A program made the position numbers and the translations under genes. Below, piece after piece: positions 2,969 through 57,297 of a DNA stretch of 57,860 bases. The DNA comes from a virus (taxonomy: Duplodnaviria; Caudoviricetes). The stretch covers positions 1 through 57,860 of IMG/VR virus record IMGVR_UViG_3300028920_002366; one strand, written 5' to 3'. A model generated the notes under the pieces. That model worked only from the letters and a program-made list of their open reading frames with translations, ran no database searches and was not told where the DNA came from. Within the stretch, counting starts at the first letter, position 1. Each line of letters starts with the position of its first letter.

Positions 2969-3541
2969 ATGCAAATATTATATCGCACAAACGGAATAAT
3001 AATCGATAGCTCTAACGAACTGTCAATTAAGGAGTTAGTTATAAAAAACAAACATAACCTTTTGGATGCCGATCTCAAAAAAGCCGATCTTCGAGAAATC
3101 AATTTGCAAGGAGGCGATCTCCGGGAAGCCAATCTCAGTTTCGCTGATCTCCGGGAAGCCGATCTCTGGAACATAGATTTCCAGGATGCTAATCTCCGGG
3201 AGGCAGATCTCCGGAAAGCATTACTTGAGGATGTTAATTTTCAAGGTACAGATCTCCGAGAAGCAAATCTACAGGATGCTAATCTCAAAGGAACCTATCT
3301 CAAGGAAACAGACCTCAGAGGAGCAAAATACGATTACAAAAAACTCATGTTTCAAGTGGATTGGGATGAACTTTCCGAAGGCCTCACCCTCGAACTCATG
3401 CGCCAGGATGCTGATTTGAGTGGAAAACTAAGTTTTAGATATAAAAGATTATGGAAACCCGGAAAACCAAAATACGGAAAAGATCAGATGTGGGATCTTT
3501 TTAAGGCGCTTTGTGAGGAGAAGGGGGTGAAAATAAAATGA
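2969..3541 (+). CDS. Pentapeptide repeat protein, copy C (C-cap lacks the GGECPY segment)
   Basis: Same N-cap and repeats as the paralogs; the C-cap is shortened. Confidence 0.88.
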   Translation: MQILYRTNGIIIDSSNELSIKELVIKNKHNLLDADLKKADLREINLQGGDLREANLSFADLREADLWNIDFQDANLREADLRKALLEDVNFQGTDLREANLQDANLKGTYLKETDLRGAKYDYKKLMFQVDWDELSEGLTLELMRQDADLSGKLSFRYKRLWKPGKPKYGKDQMWDLFKALCEEKGVKIK

Positions 3542-4092
3542 TTAAAAAAAATAAAAACTATATGATTGATATAAAAGTACTTAATGATAGTGGTTATAAC
3601 GAAGCAATGTTAGGAATATCGCTAAACAAGAAAAAAAATATTGACACGGCAAAAAAAGTATCGTATAATTTGTATAACAAAGATTTTGGACATAATAAGT
3701 TTCTTGAGCATATGTACCTTTGGTTGTTGGTGAAAGCCCCAAGGTATTGGTGGCAAGAGGCTGATACTTATAGGTTGTCGTCAAAAAATAGCGAATCAAC
3801 AATGCACACTATTTTGAAAAGAAAACTAACTTTTGCAGATTTCGAACCTGATGGAGTTTCAGAAAGAAAACTAAAAGAACTTAATCAATATGTAAAAAAC
3901 AAAAATTTTTTAATTCTTAAAAAAAGATTAAATGAATCTTTTTTGCAGCAAAGAATGTGGGTAATAAGCTATAAAACTATGAGAAATATAATAATACAAA
4001 GATATAATCATAGGTTACCACACTGGAAAGATTTTTGTGACAAAATAGTAAATAATTGTAAAAATCCAAGCTATCTCAACATAAAACAATAA
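3538..4092 (+). CDS. Divergent ThyX-like protein
   Basis: HNKFL, APRYWWQEADTYR, NSESTMH and R.NHRLPHW..FC are typical of phage ThyX-like proteins. The canonical RHR motif is absent. Confidence 0.6.
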   Translation: MIKKNKNYMIDIKVLNDSGYNEAMLGISLNKKKNIDTAKKVSYNLYNKDFGHNKFLEHMYLWLLVKAPRYWWQEADTYRLSSKNSESTMHTILKRKLTFADFEPDGVSERKLKELNQYVKNKNFLILKKRLNESFLQQRMWVISYKTMRNIIIQRYNHRLPHWKDFCDKIVNNCKNPSYLNIKQ

Positions 4093-4101
4093 GGAGGAAT
4101 T

Positions 4102-4233
4102 ATGTATAGAATATTAATCGATAATAGGTATTATTTTGGAAATATTTTTTGGAAAGAAGAAGATGTTAAAAAAATATTTCCAAAATTACAAAATCTTGGA
4201 ATAAGTTTTTGTATTGAAAGGATAAATAAATGA
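4102..4233 (+). CDS. Small hypothetical protein (43 aa)
   Basis: AAGGAGG RBS; its stop overlaps the next start. Not in the ORF track. Confidence 0.5.
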   Translation: MYRILIDNRYYFGNIFWKEEDVKKIFPKLQNLGISFCIERINK

Positions 4234-4406
4234 TGGATAAAGAATTAGAAAAAAAAGAAGTTGATGGCTATAAAGAATTAGGCAAATCCTTTATAGATTT
4301 AGGCAATGTCCTTTTAAAGGAAGATTTCACGGTGGATGAACTAAGAAGAGCCGCATCAAACTGTAATATGTCTGTTAATTTAGTTTTAAGTTTCGCAAAA
4401 AAATAG
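4230..4406 (+). CDS. Small hypothetical protein (58 aa)
   Basis: ATGA overlap with the previous ORF; open frame MMDKELEKKE... Confidence 0.5.
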   Translation: MMDKELEKKEVDGYKELGKSFIDLGNVLLKEDFTVDELRRAASNCNMSVNLVLSFAKK

Positions 4407-4424
4407 TCTTTTCGCAAAAAAATA
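4391..4424. repeat. 15-bp direct repeat TTTCGCAAAAAAATA upstream of terS
   Basis: Copies at 4391-4405 and 4410-4424. Confidence 0.8.
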
Positions 4425-4439
4425 CTTATATTATAATAT

Positions 4440-4946
4440 ATGAAAAAAATAAATTACAACAAAGTCGAATGGTATTATAATATTGGTCTTTCCACTACAG
4501 AGGTTATTAAGCTTTTGGGTATTAGTCTTTGTGCTTTTCGGCAAAGAATTAGAAACAAATATAATGTATCAATTGAAGATTATATTAAAAGCATTAATAG
4601 CGATAAAAAAGATGGAAGACCTAAAATAGAGATTGACTATGATCAAGTTAAAAGATTATGCCAAATTTTTTGTACACAGGAAGAAATTTGCAATTTTTTT
4701 GGAATTTCAGTAGATACTATAGAGAGAAGGTTTCAGGAAAGATATGGCAAAACTTTCCAAGAAAAATACAAACAATTTTCTGTTGACGGAAAGATATCAC
4801 TAAGAAGAAAACAGTTCAAAAGATGCGAAGAGGGTAGTGATACTATGCTTGTATGGATGGGCAAAAATCACCTTGGACAAAAAGACAAAAATGAACAAGA
4901 AATACTTGATCATGAAATTAAAATAACATACGAAGAAGATAATTAA
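4440..4946 (+). CDS. terS: Terminase small subunit with two HTH-like segments
   Basis: GRPKIEID..CTQEEI..FFGISVDTI..R, SLRRKQF, MLVWMGKNHLGQKD; lies directly upstream of terL. Confidence 0.75.
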   Translation: MKKINYNKVEWYYNIGLSTTEVIKLLGISLCAFRQRIRNKYNVSIEDYIKSINSDKKDGRPKIEIDYDQVKRLCQIFCTQEEICNFFGISVDTIERRFQERYGKTFQEKYKQFSVDGKISLRRKQFKRCEEGSDTMLVWMGKNHLGQKDKNEQEILDHEIKITYEEDN

Positions 4947-4982
4947 TATACCTTCCTTTTTGAGTGTTTTTCGTATTATTGG

Positions 4983-5015
4983 AATAGCCTGTGTAATGCG
5001 GGCTATTTTTATTTT
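4983..5015 (+). terminator. Intrinsic terminator between terS and terL
   Basis: AATAGCCTGT-loop-GCGGGCTATT followed by a T-rich tract. Confidence 0.6.
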
Positions 5016-5081
5016 CGAAAGGTTACAAATGTGGCAAAAACAAATAAAAGAAGATTTTTATTTGTTTAAAAAAGAATTTCG

Positions 5082-6407
5082 GTGGATTACAAGATAAAAA
5101 TTAAAAGACTTCCTCACCAAAAAGAGTTTATGTCGTCAAAAGCTCTTACAAAAGCTCTTGTAACAGGCTATGGTGGAGGAAAAACATTTTGTATGGTTCA
5201 AGAGGGAATTAAGCACAGCTTCTTAGATCCAGGGATTCCTCACATGCTTGTGTCTCCAACGTATCCTATGGCTGAACAAACTATAATACCAACTATAATT
5301 GAAATATTAGAAGATTATTTTGAACCTTCTTTACAGGAGGGAAGGGATTATTTTTATAATCGCAGTAAACATAATTTTTACATCAAAAAATGGAATGGTA
5401 TAATCTGGGTAAGGAGTGCTGATAAACCTAGCTCGCTGAAAGGTCCAAACTTGGGGAGTTTTGGGATAGATGAACCTGGGCTTATCAAAGATAGTAATGT
5501 ATACAAAATAATGATATCCAGGAGAAGGCACCCAAGAGCAAAATATCCACAAGGATACCTATCAGGTACACCAGAAGGCCTAAATTGGTTTTTTGATCTC
5601 TGTGAAGGCGATAAAATACCTAAAGATTTTTGTCTTGTCAAAGGGAAAACAACAGATAATACACATTTGTCTATAGATTACATTAATGACCTATATGACC
5701 AATATGACGAGCAGTTGGTACAAGCGTATATAAATGGCGAGTTTGTCAACCTTGAGGGTGGTTCTGCTTATTATTCTTTTTCAAATAGTTTGTATCCAAA
5801 AGGTAATTTAATTGATGATTTTGAGATAAACCCTTCAAGACCTTTAGTTCTTGGTATGGATTTTAATTATAATCCAATGACACTTGTAATAGGCCAGGAG
5901 GTTATGGTTAACAAAGAGGTAAAATTTATTGTTTTTGACGAGTTGTTTCGAAAAAATTGTGACACAGATATGGCCATAGAACAAGTTTTGGAAAAATATG
6001 GGAAGTATAAGTTTAATGTCTATCCAGACATGAGTGCATATTCAGACAGTGCTCATGGAAGTGCTAAGTCTGATATAACACTTATAAAAAATACTTTCGA
6101 AAGATATAAAAAAAGACCAATAAACGATTATATAATTAAAGGCAAATCTGCAAACCCACCTCGGAAAGACCGCCTCAATTCTGTCAATACATTACTTAGA
6201 AATGCAAAAGGCGAAATAAAATTACTTATCCAGAAAAAATGTAAATTTTTGCTGGAAGACTTGAAAAAATGCCTAATGGAAGAGTATATTAATGGAAGAT
6301 ATGTTGATCCAGAAAGGGGTCATATTACTGATGCATTAGGATATGCTGTACACGCTAGATACCCAGTCAGAATAGACAGATATTACAATAATTTAATTAT
6401 TCATTAA
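5082..6407 (+). CDS. terL: Terminase large subunit
   Basis: Walker A GYGGGKT, Walker B FGIDEP, GTPEGLNW, nuclease LGMDFN and HITDALGY. Confidence 0.95.
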   Translation: MDYKIKIKRLPHQKEFMSSKALTKALVTGYGGGKTFCMVQEGIKHSFLDPGIPHMLVSPTYPMAEQTIIPTIIEILEDYFEPSLQEGRDYFYNRSKHNFYIKKWNGIIWVRSADKPSSLKGPNLGSFGIDEPGLIKDSNVYKIMISRRRHPRAKYPQGYLSGTPEGLNWFFDLCEGDKIPKDFCLVKGKTTDNTHLSIDYINDLYDQYDEQLVQAYINGEFVNLEGGSAYYSFSNSLYPKGNLIDDFEINPSRPLVLGMDFNYNPMTLVIGQEVMVNKEVKFIVFDELFRKNCDTDMAIEQVLEKYGKYKFNVYPDMSAYSDSAHGSAKSDITLIKNTFERYKKRPINDYIIKGKSANPPRKDRLNSVNTLLRNAKGEIKLLIQKKCKFLLEDLKKCLMEEYINGRYVDPERGHITDALGYAVHARYPVRIDRYYNNLIIH

Positions 6408-6418
6408 AAGGATCTATT

Positions 6419-7882
6419 ATGGAAAATACAATCCCAATAAACGAAGAGATATCATCAAGGTTAGATACTTGGAATAGAATCGAAGCTCTTCTAACGCGAG
6501 ATGAAAATTATACCAAAAATAAACTATGTATACAGTTCCCAAACGAAAGCCAATCCGCTTACGAAGAACGAAAGAAATATTTTAATAGAACTTTTGTTAA
6601 CATAACTCAAGACCTTGTAAATGCCCCAGTTAATACTATATTTCGTCAAGGATTAAAAGATGAGTTTCGGCAAGATAATACTACATTGGAAAAATTTCAT
6701 AATAATGTTAATATTGGCGAAAATGAGATATCTCTTAGTGATTATATCCAAACTTATGTTGCTCCATCATTTAGGAGCTATGGTAATATTTGTTCACTTA
6801 TCGAGTTACCTGGAATTACGGTTAACAATAGACAGCAACAACAAGATCTAATTAAGCCGTATATTACAAATATAAAACTTCAAGATATTATCAATTGGCA
6901 GTATTATAATGATCAACTAATTTGGTTTGCTTACAAGGGCGCTTATTCAAAATTATGGCAGGACCCTATCAGTGAGCCTACCCCAGAGTCTCAGGGAGTT
7001 ACAATTTTGTGGACATTAGAAAAAGTATACATAATAGGTGATAATCAAAAAATAATTGACAGTTGGGATAATAAATATGGTATAATTCCAATTGTAATGA
7101 TGGGTACTTTTTATATTTCGCCTGAAAATCGTATTGGTAATGCTGCTATGTTTCAATCTTCACAGTCTATAGTAATAATGAATAACCTATTAAATCAAGG
7201 AGTATACGAGTTATTCAAACACGGAGGGTCATTATTACTTATGCACGAAGATTCTATGTTGGCCACAAACTTGACAACCGATAATGATGGTGAATCAAAA
7301 ATTAAAAGGCTTGATTATAATGGGATGCTTACAATGTCTGGAGAGGTGGAACCAAAATATTTAGTCAAAGAGCTAAAAACTGAAGATATTATGGAATGGG
7401 CAATGTATTACAAAAAAGAAGCTATAGAAAACGAAAGAGATCTTAGGAGTGTAGCAAATAAAGGGGTTAAAGGCAAAACAGTACAAGAGTCAGGGTTTGC
7501 TAAAGTAATTGACAGAGAGCCACTTGAAACAAACCTTATAGCTCTATCTAATAGTTGTGAGTTGTATACAAAAAAAATAAACAAAATTGTCAACACATTA
7601 ACAAATGAAAAAACAGAAAATATATTTGAATTCGATAAAGATTATGATATGAGAACCCTAAAACAAAAATACGAAGACATGCAGATAGCGATAAAAAACA
7701 GAGTAAACGATATTTCTCCTACTTTGTATAAAGAACTTTGGAAAAATATAGCACCAGAAAATGTTAAGGATCATGAAACACTTGATAAAATATTTGAAGA
7801 AATCGAAAGTTATAAAGATGATGATTTTGATGATGAAAATAATGAAATTATAGATCAATTTAATAATCTACAAAAAAAATAA
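6419..7882 (+). CDS. Portal protein
   Basis: 487 aa, directly after terL. FPNES..AYEER, N.YGIIPIV and ESG.A motifs. Confidence 0.85.
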   Translation: MENTIPINEEISSRLDTWNRIEALLTRDENYTKNKLCIQFPNESQSAYEERKKYFNRTFVNITQDLVNAPVNTIFRQGLKDEFRQDNTTLEKFHNNVNIGENEISLSDYIQTYVAPSFRSYGNICSLIELPGITVNNRQQQQDLIKPYITNIKLQDIINWQYYNDQLIWFAYKGAYSKLWQDPISEPTPESQGVTILWTLEKVYIIGDNQKIIDSWDNKYGIIPIVMMGTFYISPENRIGNAAMFQSSQSIVIMNNLLNQGVYELFKHGGSLLLMHEDSMLATNLTTDNDGESKIKRLDYNGMLTMSGEVEPKYLVKELKTEDIMEWAMYYKKEAIENERDLRSVANKGVKGKTVQESGFAKVIDREPLETNLIALSNSCELYTKKINKIVNTLTNEKTENIFEFDKDYDMRTLKQKYEDMQIAIKNRVNDISPTLYKELWKNIAPENVKDHETLDKIFEEIESYKDDDFDDENNEIIDQFNNLQKK

Positions 7883-7883
7883 C

Positions 7884-7912
7884 TTGAAAGATGATAAAAA
7901 TGGTGATAAAAT
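7884..7912 (+). promoter_or_regulatory. sigma70-type promoter, probably for a leaderless transcript
   Basis: TTGAAA-17-TAAAAT with TG extension; ATG at 7919 has no RBS. Confidence 0.55.
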
Positions 7913-7918
7913 TAAGTA

Positions 7919-8098
7919 ATGAGAAAAAAGTACAAAAATTATAAAAAAGCAACTGAAGAAAGTTTGTCGAAAATATTAGAAGAGTATATTTCTGCGATGA
8001 ATACTAGAAAATTAGAAGGCATACCTTATGATAGTATTATTACGCAAATTATAAAAATACAGCATCAAATTATATATTTAAAAAAAGGAAAAAAATGA
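7919..8098 (+). CDS. Hypothetical protein (59 aa)
   Basis: Open frame MRKKYKNY... ending in an ATGA overlap with ORF 8095. Confidence 0.55.
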   Translation: MRKKYKNYKKATEESLSKILEEYISAMNTRKLEGIPYDSIITQIIKIQHQIIYLKKGKK

Positions 8099-9036
8099 AT
8101 ATATTGTTTAACGGCCATAAATCTGGCCTTGGGAATAATGGTGGAACAAAAACTATTGTTAATTCGATTAATGTGATAAATAGATTAAGTGACAACAAAG
8201 CATATGTTATCGGAAAAAATTATTATACATGGAATAATATTAATCATATTATATTACAAGACATAACAAGAATATATGATAATTATTTTGATTATATTAT
8301 AAACGTATCTATAATTGACGTAGAACAAACAATTAGTATTAACGAAAAAACAAAAATACCCATTGTATGGTGGCTCCGTGGTTGGGAAAAATGGGTATAT
8401 GGTGAAGAAGAGCTAATAAGAAAAATTAAGAAATTCGCAAAATATGGAAAAATATTAGCAAATTCATCATGGCTTGTTGACCACGTCAAAGAAAAATGTG
8501 GTGTTGATTGTGTGTTGTGTTTCGCTGGGGTTGATATAGATTTTTGGCAAGATAGATATTACAATCTTAAGTGTGAAAAAAATAAGCTATCATATGGTGC
8601 AACTATATACGAAAGACATCCTACAAAAAATTCTAATATATTATATTTTCTTCAAGATGATTATGTAAAAAACAAAAAAATAAATTTTCGCTACATAAAT
8701 ATTAAAGATGGGCTTAATGACGATGCTCTAAAGTATTACTACTATAGCCTGAATGGATACGTAGCACCAACTGAACTTGAAGGGTTCCACAACTCAGCAG
8801 CAGAGGCAGCACTTTGTGGTTGTCTTGTATTTTGCAACAGAAAAAAAGAAAACGGTATGGGTGATTATGCAAACGAATTAACAGCGGAAAGGTTTTCGTC
8901 TGTCAATGAATTGAAACACAAACTAGAAAACCCGAATTTTGACAAAATTACAAAAATGATGGAACAAATTATAAAGAAAGTTGGTACAAGAGAAGAAAAT
9001 ATGAAAAAGTTTATCAATATTTTAAAAGGATCCTAA
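8095..9036 (+). CDS. GT-B (GT4-like) glycosyltransferase
   Basis: N-terminal GG motif, ANSSW, and EGFHNSAAEAALCG (Ex7E). Confidence 0.75.
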   Translation: MNILFNGHKSGLGNNGGTKTIVNSINVINRLSDNKAYVIGKNYYTWNNINHIILQDITRIYDNYFDYIINVSIIDVEQTISINEKTKIPIVWWLRGWEKWVYGEEELIRKIKKFAKYGKILANSSWLVDHVKEKCGVDCVLCFAGVDIDFWQDRYYNLKCEKNKLSYGATIYERHPTKNSNILYFLQDDYVKNKKINFRYINIKDGLNDDALKYYYYSLNGYVAPTELEGFHNSAAEAALCGCLVFCNRKKENGMGDYANELTAERFSSVNELKHKLENPNFDKITKMMEQIIKKVGTREENMKKFINILKGS

Positions 9037-9915
9037 ATGCCGACACTATATCGCACAGACGGAACAATAATCGATAGCTCTAACAAGTTGTCGCTCACAG
9101 AGTTAGTAAGGAATAACAAAGATAAACTTTCGGAAGGTGATCTCCGGAAGGCCGATCTCCGTGGAGTCTATATCCGGAAGGCCAATCTCAGTTTCGCCGA
9201 TCTCCGGGAATCCGATCTCCGGGAATCCGATCTCCGGGAATCCGATCTCCAGGGAGCCGATTTCCGGAAAGTCGATTTCAGAAAAGCCAATCTCAGTTTC
9301 GCCGATCTCCGGGAAGTTAATTTCAGTTTCGCCAATCTCAGTTTCGCCGATCTCCAGAAAGCCGATCTCCTGGAATCCGATCTCCGGGAATCCGATCTCC
9401 AGGGAGCCGATTTCCGGAAAGTCGATTTCAGAAAAGCCGATCTCCGTTACGCCAATCTCCGGGAAGCCTATATCAGAAAAGCCAATCTCAGTTTCGCCAA
9501 TCTCCGGGAAGCCAATCTCAGTTTCGCAGATCTCAGTTTCGCCGATCTCCGAAAAGCCGATCTCCGAAAAGCCGATCTCCGAAAAGCAAATCTCCGCTGG
9601 TCTATAATCGACGAGGCAGACCTCCGCAACGCAAAATACGACTATGAGACAGTAATGCTTCAAGTTAATTGGGAAAAACTCTCCGACGAACTCACCTTAG
9701 AACTCATGCGCCAGGACGCGCAGCTTATCGGAGAAGAAATGATAACCAATTGGTCTAATGGCGGCGAATGTCCTTATGTATTTTTGGTAAGAAAACGAGA
9801 TTTCATATTCAAAGAAAGAAAGAAGCTCTGGAAAACCGGAAAACCAAAATACGGAAAAGATCAGACACGTGAGCTGTTTGAAGCTCTTTGTGAGGAGAAA
9901 GGGGTGAAGGTCTGA
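9037..9915 (+). CDS. Pentapeptide repeat protein, copy D
   Basis: Conserved caps and repeats. Confidence 0.9.
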   Translation: MPTLYRTDGTIIDSSNKLSLTELVRNNKDKLSEGDLRKADLRGVYIRKANLSFADLRESDLRESDLRESDLQGADFRKVDFRKANLSFADLREVNFSFANLSFADLQKADLLESDLRESDLQGADFRKVDFRKADLRYANLREAYIRKANLSFANLREANLSFADLSFADLRKADLRKADLRKANLRWSIIDEADLRNAKYDYETVMLQVNWEKLSDELTLELMRQDAQLIGEEMITNWSNGGECPYVFLVRKRDFIFKERKKLWKTGKPKYGKDQTRELFEALCEEKGVKV

Positions 9916-10103
9916 TGTCAGTGATATTATGTATAGTAATAATACTATATTCTGTATTTACGCAACTTTCTATAGTGTTATTTAGACTGTTTTTAGAAGA
10001 TTTTTATGAAAACAACAAAACACTATGTGTTGTATTATCAACGTTTTGGGTGATAACGGTACCAGTTATATTAATTAAGTGGGTTTTCGAGGAGATATTT
10101 TAA
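9915..10103 (+). CDS. Small membrane protein
   Basis: Two hydrophobic segments; TGATG and TAATG overlaps with its neighbours. Confidence 0.6.
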   Translation: MSVILCIVIILYSVFTQLSIVLFRLFLEDFYENNKTLCVVLSTFWVITVPVILIKWVFEEIF

Positions 10104-10936
10104 TGAAAAAAATAAGCATTTACACATTCTTAACGTCAAATTCAAAGCTATACGCGGAATTACTTTATGCAACTATGATTAAATTTTGGTCTTATGAGAC
10201 TAATCTAAAATTTTTTTGTGTTGAGTCTAATAATTGCGATGGTTCGCCAAATTTTTGGGAGACAATCAAAAAGACAAAAAATAATAAAGGTCACAATTGC
10301 TATAACCATGCTCATGCTATGCATATAGCACAAACTCACGCAAAGTCAAGTAATTGCGACTATTGTATATTCGTTGATTGTGACATAGCTATATTGTACC
10401 CAAGCTGGGACCTTGTAGTATGTAGCGAATTAGAGTGTAATGATATATTTGGAACTGCATTTGGTGATGATAGTGTACAATATAATAGATTTCCTAATGT
10501 GTTCTTTTTTTGTTTTAGGAAGGATGTTTTTGGTGGTGATTTTGAATTTGATTTTAGCCCTGATATTGACAAAAACGGATCGCCAAAAAGAATACGATTA
10601 ACTGATATAGACAGGGCGTACCTCAAAGACCAAGACAAAAAAATATTAAAATGTGATACAGGTTGGAAAATTCCCTTTTTGGCACATTTCTACAGCATGA
10701 AGGGTAGTTATATGCCGAGGGTTTTGGGTAGCGACAAAAATTCAAAATTACCTTATTCTGGCCAAGAACAAAAAATAAAATGTATAGAAAAACCATTACA
10801 CATGGCGGAGTGGCATTATAAAAACGAACTTTACCTCACACACAAACAAGCATCAAGAAACCATCCTCTCAATGGTGTTTGGGGGTCGATCTGGAAAGCT
10901 CGAATTGATACATATATAAAATTAACTGGATTTTAG
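10103..10936 (+). CDS. Putative GT-A glycosyltransferase-like protein
   Basis: CIFVDCDI (DxD) and DTGW motifs. Start moved to ATG 10103. Confidence 0.5.
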   Translation: MKKISIYTFLTSNSKLYAELLYATMIKFWSYETNLKFFCVESNNCDGSPNFWETIKKTKNNKGHNCYNHAHAMHIAQTHAKSSNCDYCIFVDCDIAILYPSWDLVVCSELECNDIFGTAFGDDSVQYNRFPNVFFFCFRKDVFGGDFEFDFSPDIDKNGSPKRIRLTDIDRAYLKDQDKKILKCDTGWKIPFLAHFYSMKGSYMPRVLGSDKNSKLPYSGQEQKIKCIEKPLHMAEWHYKNELYLTHKQASRNHPLNGVWGSIWKARIDTYIKLTGF

Positions 10937-11003
10937 GGGTTTCTTGTGGTAATATTACTAATGTTTGTTTATTTTACAAAGACAAAGACGAGGAGGAATA
11001 AAT

Positions 11004-12002
11004 ATGACAGTTGACCCAATTATGGCGAATTATATACATGGATCAAGCAAAAAAGAAAACATAAACAACTGGCTAGAAACCAGAAAAAAAGGTATAGGTG
11101 GTAGTGATATAGCATCTATTGCGGGCCTAAACCCATGGAGAAATTCAACAGACGTATACCTTGACAAATTGGGTCTTATAAAAACAGAGGCTAATGAACA
11201 AATGAAAATTGGTCTAGTCCTTGAAGATCCTATAGCAATTATATATTCTGGGCAAAAAAAAGTGTTGCTTGAAGAAATTGATTATGTATTACAACACGAT
11301 GAATATGAATTTTGTCTTGCTAATATAGATCGATTAATAAAAAAAACAATAATTGATGATATAGATAATGACACAACAGAAGCTTTGAAAAAATATGGGG
11401 AAGGTATCTTAGAGATTAAAAATACCAGAAGAGGCGAAGATTGGGTAGATGGAAAAGTGCCGAATTATTATATGTGCCAACTACAGTGGTATCTCGGCAT
11501 AACTGGGCTTCAATGGGGGCAATTCGCTGTGTTGATCAATGGTAGCAATTTTGTCACTTCTGAAATTATTATGTTTGATGAAAATTTGTTTCAGAAACTT
11601 GTTGAAATTGCTAATAATTTTTGGTATAATCATGTTAAGAAAAATATTCCACCATCACAAAATTTGGATATTAATCAGTTGTCAAAAATATACAAAACGA
11701 AAGATAATACAATAGTATTAGAAAACAATAAAACTGTTAATGAGATTTTAGATGAGAGAGAAAAAATATTGACCACTATCAATAAGTTAGAAAAAAGGAA
11801 AAAAGAAATAGATACAGAAATATATAACAATATTAAGGAAAACAAAAGTGGTTGTACTGACAAGTGGAGTATAACGAAAATAACAAGAAATAGTGTTAAT
11901 TTAGACTATAAAAGACTAAAAGAAGAACATTATGATATCTACCAAAAATTTAGCAAAAAAAGCGAATCAGTATATTTTATATATAAAAAAATAGGAGATT
12001 AA
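11004..12002 (+). CDS. yqaJ: YqaJ / lambda-exonuclease family recombination nuclease
   Basis: WLETRKKGIGGSD..I.GLNPW, ANIDR, LEIK, VPNYY.CQLQWY. AGGAGG RBS before ATG 11004. Confidence 0.92.
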   Translation: MTVDPIMANYIHGSSKKENINNWLETRKKGIGGSDIASIAGLNPWRNSTDVYLDKLGLIKTEANEQMKIGLVLEDPIAIIYSGQKKVLLEEIDYVLQHDEYEFCLANIDRLIKKTIIDDIDNDTTEALKKYGEGILEIKNTRRGEDWVDGKVPNYYMCQLQWYLGITGLQWGQFAVLINGSNFVTSEIIMFDENLFQKLVEIANNFWYNHVKKNIPPSQNLDINQLSKIYKTKDNTIVLENNKTVNEILDEREKILTTINKLEKRKKEIDTEIYNNIKENKSGCTDKWSITKITRNSVNLDYKRLKEEHYDIYQKFSKKSESVYFIYKKIGD

Positions 12003-12003
12003 A

Positions 12004-12897
12004 ATGCCAACACTATATCGCGCAGACGGAACAACAATAGATAGCTCTAACAAGTTGTCACTCACAGAGTTAGTAAGGAAGAACAAGGATAAACTTTCGG
12101 AAGCCGATCTCAGGAAAGTCAATCTCCAGGGAGCCGATCTAAGTTTCGCCAATCTTAGTTTTGCTGATCTCCGGAAAGCCAATCTACAGGGAGTCGATCT
12201 CCAGAGAGCCGATTTCAGAAAAGCCAATCTCAGTTACGCAAATCTCCGGGAAGCCGATCTCCGAAAAGCCAATCTCCAGGGAGCCGATTTCCGGGAAGTA
12301 GATCCCAGTTTCGCCAATCTCCGAAAAGCCGATCTCCGAAAAGCCAATCTCAGTTACGCAAATCTCCGGGAAGCCAATATCAGTTGCGTTGATCTCAGTA
12401 GCGTTGATCTTAGTTATGCCAATCTCAGTTTCGCCAATCTCCGGAAATCCGATCTCAGTTTCGCCAATCTCAGTTTCGCCGATCTCCAGAAAGCCAATCT
12501 CCAGGGGTCCGATCTCAGTTTCGCCAATCTCCGGAAAGCCAATCTCAGTTTCGCCGATCTCCAGGAAGTAGATTTTCGCGGGTCGATAATCGATGATGCA
12601 GATCTCCGCAACGCGAAATATGACTACAAAACCCTAATGCTTCAAGTGAATTGGGAAAAACTTTCCGACGAACTCACACTCGAACTCATGCGCCAGGACG
12701 CGCAATTAATTGGAGAAGACATGATAACAGCCTGGGCTAATGGCGGCGAATGTCCTTACGAAGTTCTGTACAGAGATCGAGATTTCAAATTCAATGTAAA
12801 AAAACACCTCTGGAAAACCGGAAAACCGAAATACGGGGAAAATCAAATGAGACAACTTTTTGATGCGCTTTGTGAGGAGAAGGGTGTGAAAATATAA
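12004..12897 (+). CDS. Pentapeptide repeat protein, copy E
   Basis: Conserved caps and repeats. Confidence 0.9.
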   Translation: MPTLYRADGTTIDSSNKLSLTELVRKNKDKLSEADLRKVNLQGADLSFANLSFADLRKANLQGVDLQRADFRKANLSYANLREADLRKANLQGADFREVDPSFANLRKADLRKANLSYANLREANISCVDLSSVDLSYANLSFANLRKSDLSFANLSFADLQKANLQGSDLSFANLRKANLSFADLQEVDFRGSIIDDADLRNAKYDYKTLMLQVNWEKLSDELTLELMRQDAQLIGEDMITAWANGGECPYEVLYRDRDFKFNVKKHLWKTGKPKYGENQMRQLFDALCEEKGVKI

Positions 12898-13280
12898 TGG
12901 AAAGAGTTGAGATAATATCTGATTAATGCTAAATCATCATTTCTAAGTTTTGAGGTTACTTGATACATTTTTTTCATATCAAAATAATTAAGATTTTTTG
13001 ACTTTAAATAATCATCTCGTGTTTTGATATATTCGTCAACATCTGATTTAATCCGAAACATATGACACTTATAACACAATGTCATTCCATTTTCAATAAG
13101 AAACCAAGAATGTTTGTTGTTTTTTGTAATACCCCTAGATACAATATGGTGAGCTTGAAGACGGTCAGTAGCACCACACCATACACAATAAGGAGTGTTT
13201 TTTCTAATAATTTTTGACCATAATCCAAGTAATTTATTGATCTCAATTGTTCTTTTTTTTTGTTTAGATATTTTCTTCAT
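12843..13280 (-). CDS. HNH endonuclease (NinG-like)
   Basis: CVWCG..LQAHHI...NGMTLCYKCH. It is the only credible minus-strand gene. Confidence 0.8.
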   Translation of the reverse strand: MKKISKQKKRTIEINKLLGLWSKIIRKNTPYCVWCGATDRLQAHHIVSRGITKNNKHSWFLIENGMTLCYKCHMFRIKSDVDEYIKTRDDYLKSKNLNYFDMKKMYQVTSKLRNDDLALIRYYLNSFHYIFTPFSSQSASKSCLI

Positions 13281-13315
13281 AAGTAATTGATTTAATTTAA
13301 AATAAGAAATAAGTG

Positions 13316-13344
13316 TTGAAAGTTTCGTAAAAAAGTGTTACAAT
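13316..13344 (+). promoter_or_regulatory. sigma70-type promoter
   Basis: TTGAAA-17-TACAAT; same sequence as 79-107. Confidence 0.7.
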
Positions 13345-13382
13345 TATAATATAAGATAAAACACGCAAAAAAGGAGAAAAAA

Positions 13383-13580
13383 ATGAAAACACTCGAACAA
13401 GAACTCAAAGAAATGCAAACACATCATGAAGATGAAATTGCTAAACACATAGAAGAAGAATCTAAAAGAATTAAAGAAATAGAAAATGTGGTTAAAAAAG
13501 CTTACGAATTAGTTGATTATCTAAATCGCATCTCTGAAGAAAATAATGTTGAAGAATTAAGAAAATATATCTATAATTAG
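13383..13580 (+). CDS. Small coiled-coil hypothetical protein
   Basis: Preceded by a promoter and an AAGGAG RBS. Confidence 0.7.
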   Translation: MKTLEQELKEMQTHHEDEIAKHIEEESKRIKEIENVVKKAYELVDYLNRISEENNVEELRKYIYN

Positions 13581-13592
13581 AAAGAGGACATA

Positions 13593-13868
13593 ATGTATAA
13601 TATTAGAGTAATTATTGTTGTAATCATTATATTTTGCCCTTTGATTGTGAGTGCTGGTAATTTTGATACTGCAACAATCAAAATAGTTGAAATAGAAAGG
13701 ACTTACGAATTTGGTCTTCCGAAAAAAGATACAGTAATGTGTACTGTTTTCTATCTAAAAAATTCAGTTTATCATCCTAACGGAAAACATTGGTATTTGA
13801 AAGGATTACATGGACAAGATTTTATTTCAGAAAAACAACCAAAAATATTAAGAATTGTTGAAAAATAA
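13593..13868 (+). CDS. Hypothetical protein with signal peptide
   Basis: Hydrophobic N-terminus ending in VSA; RBS present. Confidence 0.6.
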   Translation: MYNIRVIIVVIIIFCPLIVSAGNFDTATIKIVEIERTYEFGLPKKDTVMCTVFYLKNSVYHPNGKHWYLKGLHGQDFISEKQPKILRIVEK

Positions 13869-13881
13869 CAAAGGAGGAAGT

Positions 13882-16213: not shown

Positions 16214-16214
16214 C

Positions 16215-17095: not shown

Positions 17096-17839
17096 ATGGA
17101 TATAAATAATATCGATTTCACCACAACAGCTATGCCGAGACCAAAAATTTTGCGAAGGACATATAGATCTTTTGCGCAAAAAATGAAAGGCCTCAAACTT
17201 AATCAAAACACTCTGTATATTAATATAGACCCTTTTCCATATGACAGCGATGATGAGTATATTGATATATGTAATATAAGAGAGCAATGCATTGATGTTG
17301 CAAAATCATTTTTTCAAAAAGTTGTAAGCAGGCAGCCAAAAAAGCCTAATTATACATCTGCATATGATTGGTTGTGGCACAGTGCAAAAAGCGAAATAAT
17401 ATTCAATCTGGAGGATGATTGGGAGCTTAATACAGCTATTGATGTTAATCAATTGCTTCAATTTTTTCGTAATTCAAAAACATTATACCAAGTTGTATTA
17501 AGAGCTTATCCTTACAAATATCCTTGTACATGTACTTCGCCTGGGTTTCTCCATAGGAGATATTATTCTAGATTGGGTGGGAAAATGGATAGTAATCGCA
17601 ATCCAGAAACCCAAACACATTCAAGGACTGATTTTGGGATATTTATTCCAAACAAAAAAAACTGTAAGAATCCAGAAAAATACGTAATAGCTTATCCCAC
17701 CCTAAGGTCAAAAATAATTGTAGATGATATTGGTAGGGATTGGTTAGCGAAATCACCATACACAAGACCCCAAATGTTACCTGCAGATGATCCAAGGTAT
17801 AAGAAAAAAGATAAATTTTTAGCATGGCTGAAAAAATAG
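17096..17839 (+). CDS. GT2-like glycosyltransferase
   Basis: TTAMPRP, INIDP and FNLEDDW motifs. Confidence 0.7.
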   Translation: MDINNIDFTTTAMPRPKILRRTYRSFAQKMKGLKLNQNTLYINIDPFPYDSDDEYIDICNIREQCIDVAKSFFQKVVSRQPKKPNYTSAYDWLWHSAKSEIIFNLEDDWELNTAIDVNQLLQFFRNSKTLYQVVLRAYPYKYPCTCTSPGFLHRRYYSRLGGKMDSNRNPETQTHSRTDFGIFIPNKKNCKNPEKYVIAYPTLRSKIIVDDIGRDWLAKSPYTRPQMLPADDPRYKKKDKFLAWLKK

Positions 17840-17848
17840 GAGATTAAA

Positions 17849-19366: not shown

Positions 19367-19367
19367 T

Positions 19368-46511: not shown

Positions 46512-48287
46512 ATGGCTGCAGATGTAAGAGTATATGAGATATCAACAAGTTCAGTTAGTAATCTTAACAATAGAGAATTTTGTTTTGAGACATCAAATGA
46601 TACTGATCTTGGATGGAAGATGGCAGGGGGGAAAAATCAAGATGGTGATGTAATGCTTTTCCTTGCAAAAGATAGACCAGCACAAGTTACAACTCTTACT
46701 GTAAGTGGGTCTGTATCAATAAGTGCTGGTAGTATTACGATAGATACCCTTTCTCTTTCAACAGCAAGTTCGTATCAGGTTATGTATGGCGATTTTCAAC
46801 AGTCTTCAACTTTTTTTTGGAAAAACAGTAAGTTAAAAATTGGCGCGACAAGTGACCCAGAATATAAGGTTGATATAGAAAGTTCATCTCAAGACCAGAT
46901 GAGATTAATTAACAATAACACTGACTCAAATCCCGCCACATTAGTATTGGAAAAAAATTCAGACACTCCTGTTGATGATGATGAGATTGGTAGAATTAAG
47001 GCAACAGGAAATGACGACGATCTATCTGTCCAAGGATATGTTGACTATAGCGATATAACTTTTATCGCCTCTGATGTTAGTAGTGATAACCCAAACGGCC
47101 AAACTGTATTTTATAACATGGTTGCTGGTACACGTACAGAGTCTATAAGGCTTAATGCTAATGGAGATAACGAAATAACAGTAAAAAATGCAGCTTCTTT
47201 GAAAAATAATTTGAATATTAAAGCTACTCTTAATTACACCATAGGCAGGCCTAGGGTCCTTGACCTAACCTCTACTGACGCAGATCTCAAGGGTTTTGCT
47301 GGTGGATTTACGGACGGGAGATATATATATCTAGTTCCAGAGTCTAATGGTGACTATTTTGGGAAAGTAGCAAAAATAGATATACATGACTTTGCTACAG
47401 TCTCAGTTCTTGATCTAACCTCTACAAACGCAGAACTAAAAGGTTTTACGGGCGGTTTTACAGATGGTAAATATGGTTATTTTATACCATCAAGAAGCAC
47501 ACAAGGAAAAGTTGGTCGGGTAGATTTATCAGATTTTGCTACAGTGTCAATGCTTGACCTAACCTCTACTGACGCAGATCTCAAGGGGTTTTTTGGTGGG
47601 TTTACTTGGGGTAATTATGGTTATTTAATGCCATATTATAATGGTCAATATTTTGGAAAAATTGCAAGGATTCACTTAGATGACTTTGCCACAGTTTCAG
47701 TTCTTGACCTAACCTCTACTGACGCAGATCTCAAGGGGTTTTTTGGTGGCTTTACGGATGGTGTATATGGTTATTGTGTACCAAATGACAATGGTTCATG
47801 GTTTGGAAAATTCACTAGGTTTAAGCTAGAGGATTTTAGTAGTGTAGATACTATTGATCTAACACTGAGGAACTCTGAGTTAAAAGGGTTTCGTGGCGGT
47901 TTTACCGACGGCAGATACGCTTATCTTGTCCCTGCTACCTATGGAAAATTTACAAGGATTGATTTAACAGATTTTAACACAGTTGATTACATAGACTTAA
48001 CAGATACAAACGCTGGCCTCAAAGGTTTTATCGGCGGGTTTACCGATGGCAAATGGGCCTATATGGTCCCTTTTGGTGCATCAGAACCTAGTGGATTATT
48101 TTGTAGAATAAATCTTAACGATTTTTCCACAATTGAAACTTTTGACATCTCTGAAATTAGTTCAAATTACAAGGGCTATCGTGGTGGTATATTTGATGGT
48201 AGGTATAGTTATTTTATACCAGCCTTTCATGCGTCTTATCATGGTAATCTAATAAGGTTTCAATCTCAATTTGGCGGTAACTTATAG
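46512..48287 (+). CDS. Tail fibre / receptor-binding protein with C-terminal beta-propeller
   Basis: Fibre-like shaft (KIGATSDP..K.DI) followed by 7 repeats of LDLTSTDADLKGF.GGFTDG.Y.Y..P. Confidence 0.7.
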   Translation: MAADVRVYEISTSSVSNLNNREFCFETSNDTDLGWKMAGGKNQDGDVMLFLAKDRPAQVTTLTVSGSVSISAGSITIDTLSLSTASSYQVMYGDFQQSSTFFWKNSKLKIGATSDPEYKVDIESSSQDQMRLINNNTDSNPATLVLEKNSDTPVDDDEIGRIKATGNDDDLSVQGYVDYSDITFIASDVSSDNPNGQTVFYNMVAGTRTESIRLNANGDNEITVKNAASLKNNLNIKATLNYTIGRPRVLDLTSTDADLKGFAGGFTDGRYIYLVPESNGDYFGKVAKIDIHDFATVSVLDLTSTNAELKGFTGGFTDGKYGYFIPSRSTQGKVGRVDLSDFATVSMLDLTSTDADLKGFFGGFTWGNYGYLMPYYNGQYFGKIARIHLDDFATVSVLDLTSTDADLKGFFGGFTDGVYGYCVPNDNGSWFGKFTRFKLEDFSSVDTIDLTLRNSELKGFRGGFTDGRYAYLVPATYGKFTRIDLTDFNTVDYIDLTDTNAGLKGFIGGFTDGKWAYMVPFGASEPSGLFCRINLNDFSTIETFDISEISSNYKGYRGGIFDGRYSYFIPAFHASYHGNLIRFQSQFGGNL

Positions 48288-53445: not shown

Positions 53446-54009
53446 ATGCGAATCACAAAAAAATGGCTTATAGAAAAATATGCTTGCGAACCAGGATTAT
53501 TATGGTTTTGTAACCAGTCTGAGATAAATCCCATAAAAATAATCAAAAAGCTTATGTTAGAGGATCGTTATGAATGGGGTAGCTGGTTGATTACAAACAT
53601 TCTTACAAAGAAAGATAATATCTTATACGCGATATTCGCAGCGGAAAAAGTACTCCATATTTTCGAAGAAAAATATCCAAACGACAAAAGACCAAGGAAA
53701 GCTATCGAAGTAGCTAAAAAATATTTAAGTAATTTTTACGCATCTGCTGCTGCTGATGCTGCTGCTGCTGCTGCTGTTGATGCTTCTGATGCTGCTTATA
53801 TTGATGATGCTACGGCAGCTGCTGATGCTGCGGCAGCTGCTTATTCTACTGCTGCTGCGGTTACTTCTGACTATATTACTTCTTCTGTTTATGCTGATTC
53901 TGCTTATGCTGATTCTGCTTCTGCGGCAGCTTATAATAATAATTCAGACTATTATTTAGAAAAAAAAATAATAAATTATGGGATCGATTTACTTAAAAAA
54001 CAAGAGTAA
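53446..54009 (+). CDS. Imm5-like phage protein with Ala-rich tract
   Basis: AC..G..WF, AE.VL.IFE.KYPNDKRPRKAIE.A, then GCT-rich repeats. Confidence 0.7.
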   Translation: MRITKKWLIEKYACEPGLLWFCNQSEINPIKIIKKLMLEDRYEWGSWLITNILTKKDNILYAIFAAEKVLHIFEEKYPNDKRPRKAIEVAKKYLSNFYASAAADAAAAAAVDASDAAYIDDATAAADAAAAAYSTAAAVTSDYITSSVYADSAYADSASAAAYNNNSDYYLEKKIINYGIDLLKKQE

Positions 54010-55256: not shown

Positions 55257-55981
55257 TGGCTAAAAGATTATTTGACAACACTTTATTTAAACACAAGTTT
55301 TTTAAAAATTTACCAGAAAAATATAAATTGATGTGGATATACTTACTATGTGAATGCGATCATTCTGGTATATGGATTGTAGATTTTGATGTATTGGGTA
55401 TTTATATAAAAAACATAGGTTTAGAAGAATCAATTAAAGTCTTTGGTGATAAAATAGTAGTTTTCGACAATGAAGAGAAATGGTTTATCCCGTCTTTTAT
55501 AGAGTTCCAATATGGGTTATTAAACGAAAAAAATAGAGTACATAAATCAGTTATAGATATTTTGGATAGATTCAAACTATTAAAATATACAAAAATAATG
55601 ACCCTTGAAAGGGTCATGGAAGGGTGTAAGGATAAAGATAAAGATAAAGACAAAGACAAAGACAAGGAAAAAGAGAAAGAAAAAGAAAAAAAAGAAAAGC
55701 ATTATAAATTAGGCTCAAAAAAAAATGAAGAAGATTTTAATTTTTTTTGGCAAAAGTATCACGAAGTTGTTAAATTAAAAAAAACAGACCTGCAAGATTC
55801 AAAAAAAGCTTGGTCGAAATTAACCAGAAAGGAGAAAACCAATGCCTTGAATAATATAGAAAAATACTATTGGTCGCTCAAAAATAAGAATTATCCACAC
55901 AAAGCACGAACATATCTCTCGAAAAAACACTTTGATGACGAGTTTGAAATTAACAAAAATGACAAATGGGGAAATTGGTAA
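55256..55981 (+). CDS. Phage replication initiator-like protein
   Basis: KL.WIYLL..CDH.GIW wHTH-type N-terminus, (DK)n linker, and FW..Y..K...AW..L...TYL C-terminus. Confidence 0.7.
   Translation: MAKRLFDNTLFKHKFFKNLPEKYKLMWIYLLCECDHSGIWIVDFDVLGIYIKNIGLEESIKVFGDKIVVFDNEEKWFIPSFIEFQYGLLNEKNRVHKSVIDILDRFKLLKYTKIMTLERVMEGCKDKDKDKDKDKDKEKEKEKEKKEKHYKLGSKKNEEDFNFFWQKYHEVVKLKKTDLQDSKKAWSKLTRKEKTNALNNIEKYYWSLKNKNYPHKARTYLSKKHFDDEFEINKNDKWGNW
55598..55617. repeat. Perfect inverted repeat ATGACCCTT-GA-AAGGGTCAT, candidate origin element
   Basis: Lies in the initiator linker next to the purine-rich AAAGA(T/C) repeats. Confidence 0.5.
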
Positions 55982-56313
55982 TGACAAAAAATTTTTTTAA
56001 AAACCGAATTAAAAAGCTTGAAAAAGAGCTTCAACTCTCTGCAAATACAGAGTTTTACACCGATGTTTTGTTTGAAAAATTTAAAAATTCTGATGATAAA
56101 AATTTTAACAAAACTTGCGATATTTTAGCATCAACTTACGAAAATAAATTCAAATTTCCTGGGTTAAGTGATTTTATAAAAGTTTATAAATCAATAATTT
56201 ACCCGCCAAAAAATCTTAATTTAAGAAAAAAAAAACTAACAAACAGGGAAGTTGAGCAGGTTGGAAATATAGCCTCTGAATTAGCAAAAAAATTTTCAAA
56301 GAAAGGATCCTAA
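55981..56313 (+). CDS. Probable helicase loader/inhibitor-like protein
   Basis: Follows the initiator gene; KFP..SD motif. Confidence 0.45.
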   Translation: MTKNFFKNRIKKLEKELQLSANTEFYTDVLFEKFKNSDDKNFNKTCDILASTYENKFKFPGLSDFIKVYKSIIYPPKNLNLRKKKLTNREVEQVGNIASELAKKFSKKGS

Positions 56314-57297
56314 ATGTCTACACTATACCGCACAGACGGAACAATGATAGATAGTTCTAACAAGTTACCACTCGAAAAATTAGCAAATAAGAACAAAGAT
56401 AAGCTTTTTGGTGCCAATCTCAGTTATAAAATTCTACGTTTCGCTAATCTCCAAAAAGCTAATCTCAAAAAAGCTAATCTACAAAAAGCTAATCTAAGTT
56501 TCACCAATCTTAGTTTTGCTGATCTCCGGGAAGCCAATCTCCAAAAAGCCAATCTAAGTTGCGCCAATCTAAGTTACGCCAATCTTAGTTTTGCTGATCT
56601 CCGGAAAGCCAATCTACAGGGAGTCGATCTCCAGAGAGCCGATTTCAGAAAAGCCAATCTCCGGAAAGCAGATGTTAAGGAAGCCAATCTCAATTACGCC
56701 AATCTCCGGGGAGCCGATCTCCGGGAAGCAAATCTCCGGGGAGCCGATCTCCGGGAAGCAGATCTTCGAGAAGCCAATCTCAGTTTCGCCGATCTACGTT
56801 TCGCCGATCTACGAGAAGCCAATCTCAGTTTCGCCGATCTCAGTTTCGCCAATCTCAGTTTCGCTAATCTCAGTTTCACCGATCTCCAGAAAGCAGATCT
56901 CCAGAAAGCCGATCTCCAGAAAGCCGATCTCAGGAAAGTCAATCTCCAGAAAGCCGATCTCCGAGAAGTCGATTTCCGCTGGTCGATAATCGATGATGCA
57001 GACCTCCGCAACGCAAAATACGACTATGAGACAGTAATGCTTCAAGTTGATTGGGGAGAACTTTCCGACAAACTCACCCTCGAACTCATGCGCCAGGACG
57101 CGCAATTAATTGGAGAAGACATGATAACAGCCTGGGCTAATGGCGGCGAATGTCCTTACGAAGTTCTGTACAGAGATCGAGACTTCAAATTCAATGTTAA
57201 AAAACACCTCTGGAAACCCGGAAAACCAAAATACGGAAAAGATCAAATGAGAGAGCTGTTTGAGGCGCTTTGTAAGGAAAAAGGAGTGAAGATCTGA
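56314..57297 (+). CDS. Pentapeptide repeat protein, copy G
   Basis: Conserved caps and repeats. Confidence 0.9.
   Translation: MSTLYRTDGTMIDSSNKLPLEKLANKNKDKLFGANLSYKILRFANLQKANLKKANLQKANLSFTNLSFADLREANLQKANLSCANLSYANLSFADLRKANLQGVDLQRADFRKANLRKADVKEANLNYANLRGADLREANLRGADLREADLREANLSFADLRFADLREANLSFADLSFANLSFANLSFTDLQKADLQKADLQKADLRKVNLQKADLREVDFRWSIIDDADLRNAKYDYETVMLQVDWGELSDKLTLELMRQDAQLIGEDMITAWANGGECPYEVLYRDRDFKFNVKKHLWKPGKPKYGKDQMRELFEALCKEKGVKI

Follow-up and report, generated by a model that had tools for sequence, protein, structure and literature searches.

How does a single gene come to be present eight times in one phage genome? Phage genomes are limited in size and rarely tolerate bursts of paralogs, yet in the viral contig IMGVR_UViG_3300028920_002366 (IMG/VR; Caudoviricetes), which we analyzed over its entire 57,860 bp (the window), one gene encoding a pentapeptide-repeat protein (PRP) accounts for 11% of the sequence. 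The contig is linear and has a CheckV completeness of 76%. Our analysis indicates that the copies are probably the product of a lineage-specific, recombination-driven burst of this one gene family rather than those of a defined mobile element.

All-against-all BLASTP, together with a search of the record itself, showed that the eight units called cassettes A to H in a first-pass annotation of the window are paralogous PRP genes with a combined length of 6,553 nt (11.3% of the contig):

Copy A: 146/176-1444, + strand, 432 amino acids, with the PRP proper starting at 176; PF00805, E value of 1.6e-144.
Copy B: 1497-2180, + strand, with an in-frame TAA at codon 19 (1551-1553) and the remaining frame open.
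Copy C: 2969-3541, + strand, 190 amino acids.
Copy D: 9037-9915, + strand, 292 amino acids; its ATG abuts the stop codon of a glycosyltransferase gene.
Copy E: 12004-12897, + strand, 297 amino acids.
Copy F: 17849-18577, + strand, 242 amino acids.
Copy G: 56314-57297, + strand, 327 amino acids.
Copy H: 57350 to 57860, + strand, cut by the contig end.

The proteins have a common architecture, in which a conserved N terminus of about 35 residues is followed by a variable repeat array and then by a conserved C-terminal domain of about 97 residues, the latter being 75 to 88% identical at the amino acid level among the copies. All six copies tested scored above the cutoff of Pfam family PF00805 (20.2 bits; E values from 8.7e-27 to 1.6e-144). 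The arrays hold roughly 10 to 56 pentapeptides and consist of 15-nt units with higher-order periods of 135 to 210 nt; the largest array is that of copy A, in which the higher-order periods are 210 and 135 nt. Copies B and C are damaged; in C, the C-terminal domain is shorter by about 21 residues, and the invariant W-x-NGGECP motif is lost with them.

The sequences directly upstream of the start codons join the copies in pairs. AAAGGATCCTAA-ATG was present at 9025 (copy D) and 56302 (copy G), AAAAAATAGGAGATTAAA-ATG at 11986 (copy E) and 17831 (copy F), and AAAGGAGTTGAAA-ATG at 1484 (copy B) and 57337 (copy H). The first-pass annotation had drawn attention to these leaders and to the KGS* ending common to the proteins encoded upstream of D and G, and both observations held: each leader occurs exactly twice in the window, always directly before a copy, and both upstream proteins do end in KGS*. 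The genes and the leader concerned are the following:

8095..9036, + strand: glycosyltransferase-like gene, whose tail ..ILKGS* (AAAGGATCCTAA, 9025-9036) is the leader of D.
55966..56313, + strand: gene ending in KGS*, encoded by 12 nt in common with the glycosyltransferase tail.
17096..17839, + strand: backbone gene, whose tail ..WLKK* (AAAAAATAG) is the 5' half of the F/E leader.
11986..12003, + strand: leader of E, AAAAAATAGGAGATTAAA, identical to 17831-17848.

Leader sharing exceeds chance. When all gene pairs were compared for uninterrupted identity immediately upstream of their start codons, runs of at least 12 nt were found in 3 of the 28 PRP pairs (D/G, 12 nt; E/F, 18 nt; B/H, 36 nt) versus 1 of the 2701 other pairs. 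Allowing up to three mismatches revealed no extra leader copy before other genes beyond what shuffled sequences explain. A match to AAAAGATCCTAAATG at 19698 (one mismatch) lies inside a coding frame and was taken as chance, and extending the D-G match past 12 nt gave no significance. All leaders contain a Shine-Dalgarno-like AGGA/GGAG. The sole non-PRP pair with a leader match of at least 12 nt (13 nt) consists of genes 32276 and 32633, which are neighboring and unrelated (BLASTP E value of 0.13) and share 17 nt, GGAGTTATAGGAA-ATGA (32263-32279 and 32620-32636).

Homologs of the flanking genes revealed the direction of transfer. No close relative of the window was found by blastn against INPHARED, by comparison of the glycosyltransferase protein and the alignment of the PRP C-terminal domain with viral contigs, or by comparison of the protein of the window's RecE-like exonuclease gene with metagenome contigs, and a degenerate PRP 5' DNA pattern had no match in viral and metagenome contigs. 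Homologs of the glycosyltransferase-like gene 8095 (82 matches; genes are named here by their first position in the window) led to five viral loci, L033 to L037, with the backbone order terminase, portal, 8095, variable region, 14275, 15437, 17096, 10079, 18851, and 19890 onward. Two relative records were fetched whole, one of which (G031) is complete, with direct terminal repeats; it has 35 non-PRP open reading frames (ORFs) in common with the window, in the same order and with 27 to 62% identity. The relatives have no PRP gene at the junctions where the window has D and F. The glycosyltransferase tail ..KKFINILKGS* ends where its homologs end (..FINILEG and ..FIEILEKG*; AAAGGATCCTAA versus AAAGGGTAA in L037), and the 17096 tail ..FLAWLKK* ends exactly as in L035 (..FTKWVKK*; DNA AAAAAATAG versus AAAAAATGA). 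Since the homologs show these tails to be native, D and F have leaders that belong to their sites, and therefore G inherited its 12 nt from D and E its 18 nt from F (leader comparison, REARRANGEMENT). Judging from these alignments, the two transfers remodeled the C termini of unrelated recipient genes: the exonuclease gene now ends in ..KKIGD* inside the leader of E, and the protein of gene 55966, the recipient before G, had no homologs among those searched. The ribosome-binding site (RBS) of a copy is therefore not its own and stems from the previous site. Each copy thus keeps the last 12 to 18 nt of the place from which it came, and the homologs of the flanking genes tell which place that was.

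The same kind of scar, with a longer piece of neighboring DNA, was found at two further junctions, and its source is a gene that itself adjoins a copy:

2180..2968, + strand: gene for a RecT-like single-stranded DNA annealing protein (recT); phrog_148, E value of 9.7e-53.
1445..1496, + strand: A-B spacer, consisting of recT nt 1-25, a deletion of 15 to 18 nt, CATTGTAACACAAA, and then the leader GGAGTTGAAA.
57298..57349, + strand: G-H spacer, a recT-remnant scar as in 1445-1496.

The two spacers, 52 nt each and almost identical, match the 5' end of recT, the gene immediately after copy B, whose stop codon overlaps the recT start codon (TAATG). The recT remnants therefore indicate a tandem duplication in which the PRP gene was copied along with some 13 nt of leader and some 58 nt of recT, and the scar of A-B was later copied to G-H. 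The 65 nt upstream of F were also considered as a diverged spacer of this kind (score of 18.5 versus a null 99th percentile of 16.5) and proved to be native C-terminal coding sequence of 17096.

The upstream side of copy A has a different origin, as shown by three features:

1..185, no strand assigned: approximately 98% duplicate of 13237-13422, with 124 nt exact.
13237..13422, no strand assigned: source or twin of 1-185, with the 5' end of the HNH gene, a divergent promoter region, and the start of ORF13383.
12843..13280, - strand: HNH endonuclease gene; PF01844, E value of 9.9e-6, and PHROG HNH families.

A second HNH gene, on the - strand and truncated by the end of the contig, contributes its 5' end to segment 1-185, which further includes a promoter-like region and codons 1 to 10 of ORF13383. 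Copy A is the only copy with a promoter-like site (TTGAAA-17-TACAAT at 79-107). The identity of the two segments ends at ATGCAAACAC, where the PRP reading MQTLYR begins, which makes copy A a fusion to ORF13383; the two are joined within 5 to 10 nt common to both partners, the PRP start codon included. The complete HNH gene is convergent with copy E and overlaps its last 55 nt, and the partial second one precedes A. The most recent duplication in the contig is this HNH-promoter segment and not a PRP gene, and besides the PRP sequences and their flanks, the 185-nt segment (two copies) is the sole long noncoding repeat.

Next, we looked at how old the copies are and whether they evolved independently of each other. 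For the C-terminal domain, ratios of nonsynonymous to synonymous divergence (dN/dS) among copies ranged from 0.06 to 0.32 and dS from 0.22 to 0.84; these are therefore old genes under purifying selection, and the same measure indicates that the PRP genes are functional. In a permutation test, 5 of 15 pairs shared runs that were significantly long (P value ≤ 0.0032), and the nearest neighbor of a copy switched between thirds of the domain, with A and B 100% identical and E and G 98% identical in the middle third. Copy G, which combines a D-like leader with a last 39 nt and a downstream spacer that are A-like, is a clear mosaic. These patterns show that the copies are mosaic through gene conversion. 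Furthermore, the GC content at third codon positions (GC3) was 0.39 to 0.51 in the PRP genes versus 0.251 ± 0.030 (maximum, 0.333) in 41 other genes, with the HNH gene at 0.23. In 29 other phage loci, the GC3 of the domain tracked that of the host phage, so the anomaly is specific to this genome; it may come from foreign origin or from conversion bias.

The copies also lie at the edges of a larger rearrangement, which involves the following segment and the exonuclease gene within it:

9915..12002, + strand: segment bracketed by D and E, with ORF 9915-10103, gene 10079-10936, and the exonuclease gene 10965-12002.
10965-12002, + strand: RecE-like exonuclease gene; phrog_434, E value of 6e-74.

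In L033, L034, and L035, the homolog of 10079 follows that of 17096, a place held in the window by copy F. In the window, gene 10079, ORF 9915, and the exonuclease gene are found instead in the variable region that follows the glycosyltransferase gene, bracketed by D and E. All three breakpoints of the translocation of gene 10079 thus carry PRP copies, a pattern that would be expected from exchange between dispersed repeats, although the individual steps can be reconstructed only tentatively.

Searches of other genomes showed how unusual the number of copies is. A profile of the C-terminal domain matched 401 cluster representatives at E values of ≤1e-3 and 110 at ≤1e-10; PRP repeats were present in 33 of 35 sampled representatives (one being copy C of the window), and all 10 representatives looked up were metagenome singletons. 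In 29 IMG/VR records, the domain was single copy in 28 and present twice in one, compared with eight copies in the window, and no other gene was in common between the window and these 29 records. In G031, there was no recT, no RecE-like exonuclease, and no PRP with the C-terminal domain by the same profile that matched 29 of the 29 other records. The burst is therefore lineage specific, because the family is single copy in 28 of 29 other records and absent from a syntenic relative. Small ORFs adjoining the copies had no homologs in the relatives. G031 does carry one small PRP of 101 amino acids without the C-terminal domain (L044, 18320-18625), in a nonhomologous early region.

The neighborhoods of the family were surveyed within 2.6 kb at 26 loci (130 ORFs of at least 105 amino acids). 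Neighbors included Sak4-like and gp2.5-like annealing proteins, exonucleases, SSB with RusA, helicases, primases, and ParB, and HNH genes lay within this distance of a single PRP gene at 3 of the 26 loci (L001, L010, and L027). This genomic context suggests that the family takes part in DNA transactions. At L027 (7838-12320), which is part of a larger phage contig, two topoisomerase II subunit genes flank the lone PRP gene, and the HNH gene is just upstream. At L030 (1-6869), on an unrelated contig of a metagenome-assembled genome, there are at least three tandem PRP copies or fragments. At the tandem junctions of L030, GGATG[A/G]AGATAA recurs as a common leader, and 103 nt of a PRP 3' end, repeated exactly (at 1246 and 2655), are joined to a gene made up of 'YGN' repeats; the shared leader and the 3' fusion therefore indicate that the family behaves alike in a second genome.

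In the course of events that we consider probable, a PRP gene would have been copied repeatedly to new gene junctions at very short homologies near translation starts and stops. Daughter copies would have carried the flank of their donor with them, namely, the 12-nt glycosyltransferase tail from D to G and the 18 nt of 17096 tail plus spacer from F to E, and the tandem duplication giving A-B would have carried about 58 nt of recT, later copied to G-H, with copy A gaining a promoter and 10 codons of ORF13383. The survivors would be only those insertions that were compatible with the tight packing of stop and start codons. Patches would later have been exchanged by gene conversion, the 15-nt arrays would have expanded and contracted, and the dispersed copies would have provided portable homology for rearrangement, with 10079 and the exonuclease gene ending up between D and E and F at the old 10079 site. 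The likeliest catalyst is probably the phage's own RecT-like annealing protein acting with the RecE-like exonuclease, and double-strand breaks made by the adjacent HNH endonuclease may contribute. The account of relaxed recombination by Rad52-like recombinases, including Red-beta/RecT, in De Paepe et al. 2014 (PMC3945230) has passages reporting that RecT/RecE pairs efficiently recombine substrates that are 78% identical or have short homology; the phage studied here likewise encodes a RecT-like and a RecE-like protein and joined diverged sequences or very short homologies. What those passages describe is exchange between phages and prophages, and intragenomic amplification of one gene is not among the cases in them.

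Several points weigh against this account. The three mapped left ends all lie 10 to 18 nt from the ATG, which fits a process directed to start signals better than random breakpoints followed by selection. The role of the RecT/RecE pair as catalyst is presumptive for every one of the events. The high GC3 of the PRP genes, at dS values of up to 0.8, is hard to reconcile with long residence in the genome. The missing part of the genome (about 24%) may hold further PRP copies or a dedicated enzyme. Moreover, the first-pass annotation had called for empty sites in related phages, and although PRP-free junctions do exist in syntenic relatives, these are distant (27 to 62% amino acid identity), so that their "empty sites" are not allelic and cannot be mapped as alleles.

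The position of the left ends is also what one would predict from a strong form of the proposal in the first-pass annotation, in which a discrete, nonautonomous cassette of RBS and ORF that has remained mobile is directed by microhomology to Shine-Dalgarno and start signals. We regard this as possible but unlikely. In addition to left ends of shared sequence that all fall 10 to 18 nt upstream of the ATG, it has in its favor the junction of copy A, which lies in a 5- to 10-nt microhomology including the PRP start codon, the scar-free abutment of the ATG of D on the native glycosyltransferase stop, the copies' being compositional islands (GC3 of 0.39 to 0.51 versus 0.25), and the non-PRP pair 32276/32633, which likewise shares a 13-nt leader. 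However, the copies have no fixed ends: left ends lie at -12, -18, or about -13 or are a fusion within an ORF, and right ends range from 0 to about +58 nt into recT. The idea that cassettes bring their own RBS was right insofar as G and E moved with RBS-bearing leaders of 12 and 18 nt, but D and F use the native sequence of their sites; similarly, microhomology recombination at start signals is seen in the A/ORF13383 junction on the PRP start, but without the constant ends of a unit.

The first-pass annotation had seen no terminal inverted repeats or transposase. Neither terminal inverted repeats nor target duplications were found at the copies, the longest inverted matches being 7 to 10 nt (null mean of 7.1 and maximum of 11), and direct flank matches around the copies were 5 to 9 nt, in A-rich sequence; no transposase or integrase was found among the 73 ORFs scanned with PHROGs or the 16 scanned with Pfam in this 76% complete contig. 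Terminator-like sites numbered 7 in the window versus 11.0 expected. Translational coupling had been put forward as a property of the cassette, and it does not distinguish the copies. The upstream stop lies 0 to 9 nt from the ATG at C, D, E, F, and G, and the overlaps of PRP stop codons with a following start are present, but the "next start" after A and G belongs to a 16-codon recT remnant and that after E to a 9-codon ORF, none of which is a real gene. Gaps of -8 to +3 occurred at 37 of 81 junctions, 30 of these among the 69 PRP-free junctions, and 10 of the 69 had an overlap of -1 or -4; stop/start overlap is therefore genome-wide and not cassette specific. Nor did we find signs that a unit is spreading now: the copies are old (dS of 0.22 to 0.84) and mosaic by gene conversion, neither an allelic empty site nor a recent, identical pair of copies is known, and the sole recent duplication (185 nt) is HNH/promoter sequence. 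Much of the pattern is accounted for by gene conversion together with rearrangement between repeats.

A variant that borrows from both of these readings strikes us as decidedly unlikely. In it, the PRP gene would be copied and pasted onto translation-start signals as a translationally coupled cassette by RecT/RecE and HNH cuts, building up a repertoire of beta-helices of graded length (10 to 56 pentapeptides) and, as portable homology, moving other genes such as 10079 and the exonuclease gene in the process. If this were true, the family would correspond to PeSL shuffling (see below) at the scale of a whole translated gene, without promoter, terminator, or element ends, and continual conversion between copies would be the reason that GC3 stays high.

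It is very unlikely that the copies owe their mobility to a homing endonuclease, with HNH cuts in or near PRP genes being repaired from paralogs such that flanks are coconverted and copies spread. An HNH gene does overlap the 3' end of E, a second one precedes A, the HNH-promoter segment is the contig's most recent duplication (124 nt exact), and HNH genes accompany single PRP genes within 2.6 kb at 3 of 26 other loci. Yet just two of the eight copies (E and A) have an HNH neighbor, no target site was identified, and homing would account for spread between genomes at one site and not for spread to unrelated junctions. Free-standing homing endonucleases of phages are similar in that the HNH gene is wedged between genes beside two copies and its surroundings are the most recently duplicated; they differ in that most PRP copies have no endonuclease neighbor and the PRP gene encodes no nuclease.

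Separate acquisition of PRP genes that had already diverged, or of an array, from a GC-richer donor is highly improbable. It would explain why GC3 is high in all copies despite dS values of up to 0.8, and tandem arrays do exist elsewhere (L030). On the other hand, the flanks carried by the copies are this genome's own glycosyltransferase tail, 17096 tail, recT, and ORF13383, and the N- and C-terminal regions are 75 to 88% identical at the amino acid level among the copies versus at most 57% to any outside sequence.

An artifact, whether misassembly of a metagenome across repeats (at 36 nt, the E/F repeat is longer than the assembler's words, and the E and F bodies could be swapped) or convergence of leaders under selection for a good RBS (a Shine-Dalgarno-like AGGA/GGAG is present in every leader), is the least probable explanation of all, since Logan contigs bridge the junctions without mismatch, exact identity over 12 to 18 nt, including GGATCC and stop codons, recurred in only 1 of 2701 control pairs, and an E/F swap would leave both junctions in place. 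The window sequence is present in one public run, a marine sediment metagenome, which may be the sample from which the window was assembled and so is not independent support. Logan contigs of this run bridge 2127-3158 (recT to C), 3461-9226 (C to D), 9751-12015 (D to the leader of E), and 13393-17860, with 0 mismatches; the junctions are therefore not artifacts of a single assembler, with the reads possibly being those of the window itself, and these contigs cannot assign the E and F bodies to their leaders. Over positions 1 to 20000, one joint, from 2953 to 3536, skips 582 nt (approximately copy C) at a depth of 7.6 and with a side of 21 nt, and was judged too weak to be called an empty site. 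In the same range, joints with sides of 30 to 44 nt also connected PRP arrays (853 to 12148, 9089 to 18028, 18061 to 12137, and 12231 to 438), and these may come from further copies in the missing part of the genome. The + strand carries every clear gene of the contig but one, the HNH endonuclease gene; genes identified by PHROGs include those for the small and large terminase subunits, portal, major head and tail proteins, dUTPase, and primase, and no tRNA genes were found in the window.

To relate the copies to PRPs of known structure, we used an AlphaFold2 model of copy F (pLDDT of 82), in which a strand recurs every five residues and is followed by a helical domain. Foldseek matched it to Np275/276 (9.7e-8; root mean square deviation of 0.9 over 115 columns), HetL, MfpA, and QnrB1. 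The copies are thus predicted to adopt the right-handed quadrilateral beta-helix of PRPs. Qnr, MfpA, and AlbG, DNA mimics that bind DNA gyrase, belong to the same repeat family and have the same fold; they are acidic, in contrast to the PRP copies, which are about neutral to basic (K+R ≥ D+E in five of seven copies; pI of 5.4 to 9.0, by sequence count and not from a computed surface) and have the extra 97-residue C-terminal domain. A classical acidic DNA mimic of the MfpA type is therefore less likely. For a gyrase or topoisomerase II partner, the one hint comes from genomic context, namely, the gene order at L027. The C-terminal domain (window 12604-12894 and the corresponding part of the other copies) modeled alone with a pLDDT of 90. 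It had no match in Pfam, PHROG, or PADLOC, and its fold matches were unconvincing (best Foldseek E value against the PDB, 1.1; best VIA-align Z, 3.3; best ESM Atlas score, 0.81). According to a review, PRPs usually dimerize via C-terminal helices (PMC10886550); the extra domain may do so as well or bind a partner. The family it represents is uncharacterized and common in phages, where it lies near genes for replication and recombination, which makes it a good subject for functional work.

We also compared the arrangement with known systems of gene shuffling; the literature searched contained no description of a phage with an amplified PRP family. The morons of lambdoid phages are accessory genes located between two backbone genes, with their own promoter and terminator. 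The PRP genes resemble them in being inserted between backbone genes, absent from relatives, and compositionally distinct; they differ in being multicopy and in lying, at C, D, E, F, and G, 0 to 9 nt from the upstream stop. The PeSL (promoter-early stem-loop) cassettes of T4-type phages (Arbiol et al. 2010; PMC2839356) are similarly dispersed repeats at gene boundaries that mediate modular shuffling, and a segment bracketed by two repeats, here D to E, is what cassette exchange would move. PeSLs are short noncoding promoter/terminator motifs, whereas the repeat here is a coding gene of 0.6 to 1.3 kb that, except at A, has no promoter or terminator of its own, and no mini-circles were seen. The window thus provides a concrete case of mosaicism at the scale of the ribosome-binding site and of a repeated coding gene serving as homology for module shuffling, in which short-homology recombination reshapes a tightly packed viral genome.

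Four other repeats were noted in the window. Directly downstream of copy F, ORF 18628-18867 contains a perfect hexanucleotide repeat (AGCAAA × 9.8, 18777-18835). A 92-amino-acid ORF at 37452-37730 matches, at 65% identity, the C-terminal 84 residues of a 791-amino-acid protein encoded two genes downstream (38753-41128), which looks like a duplicated tail fiber-like C-terminal module. The tail-region gene 46512-48287 carries 150-nt tandem repeats at 47259-47837 (3.5 copies, with exact cores of 35 to 47 nt), and a CTG/GCT triplet run (38 copies, 72% matches) is located at 53744-53858 in gene 53446-54009.

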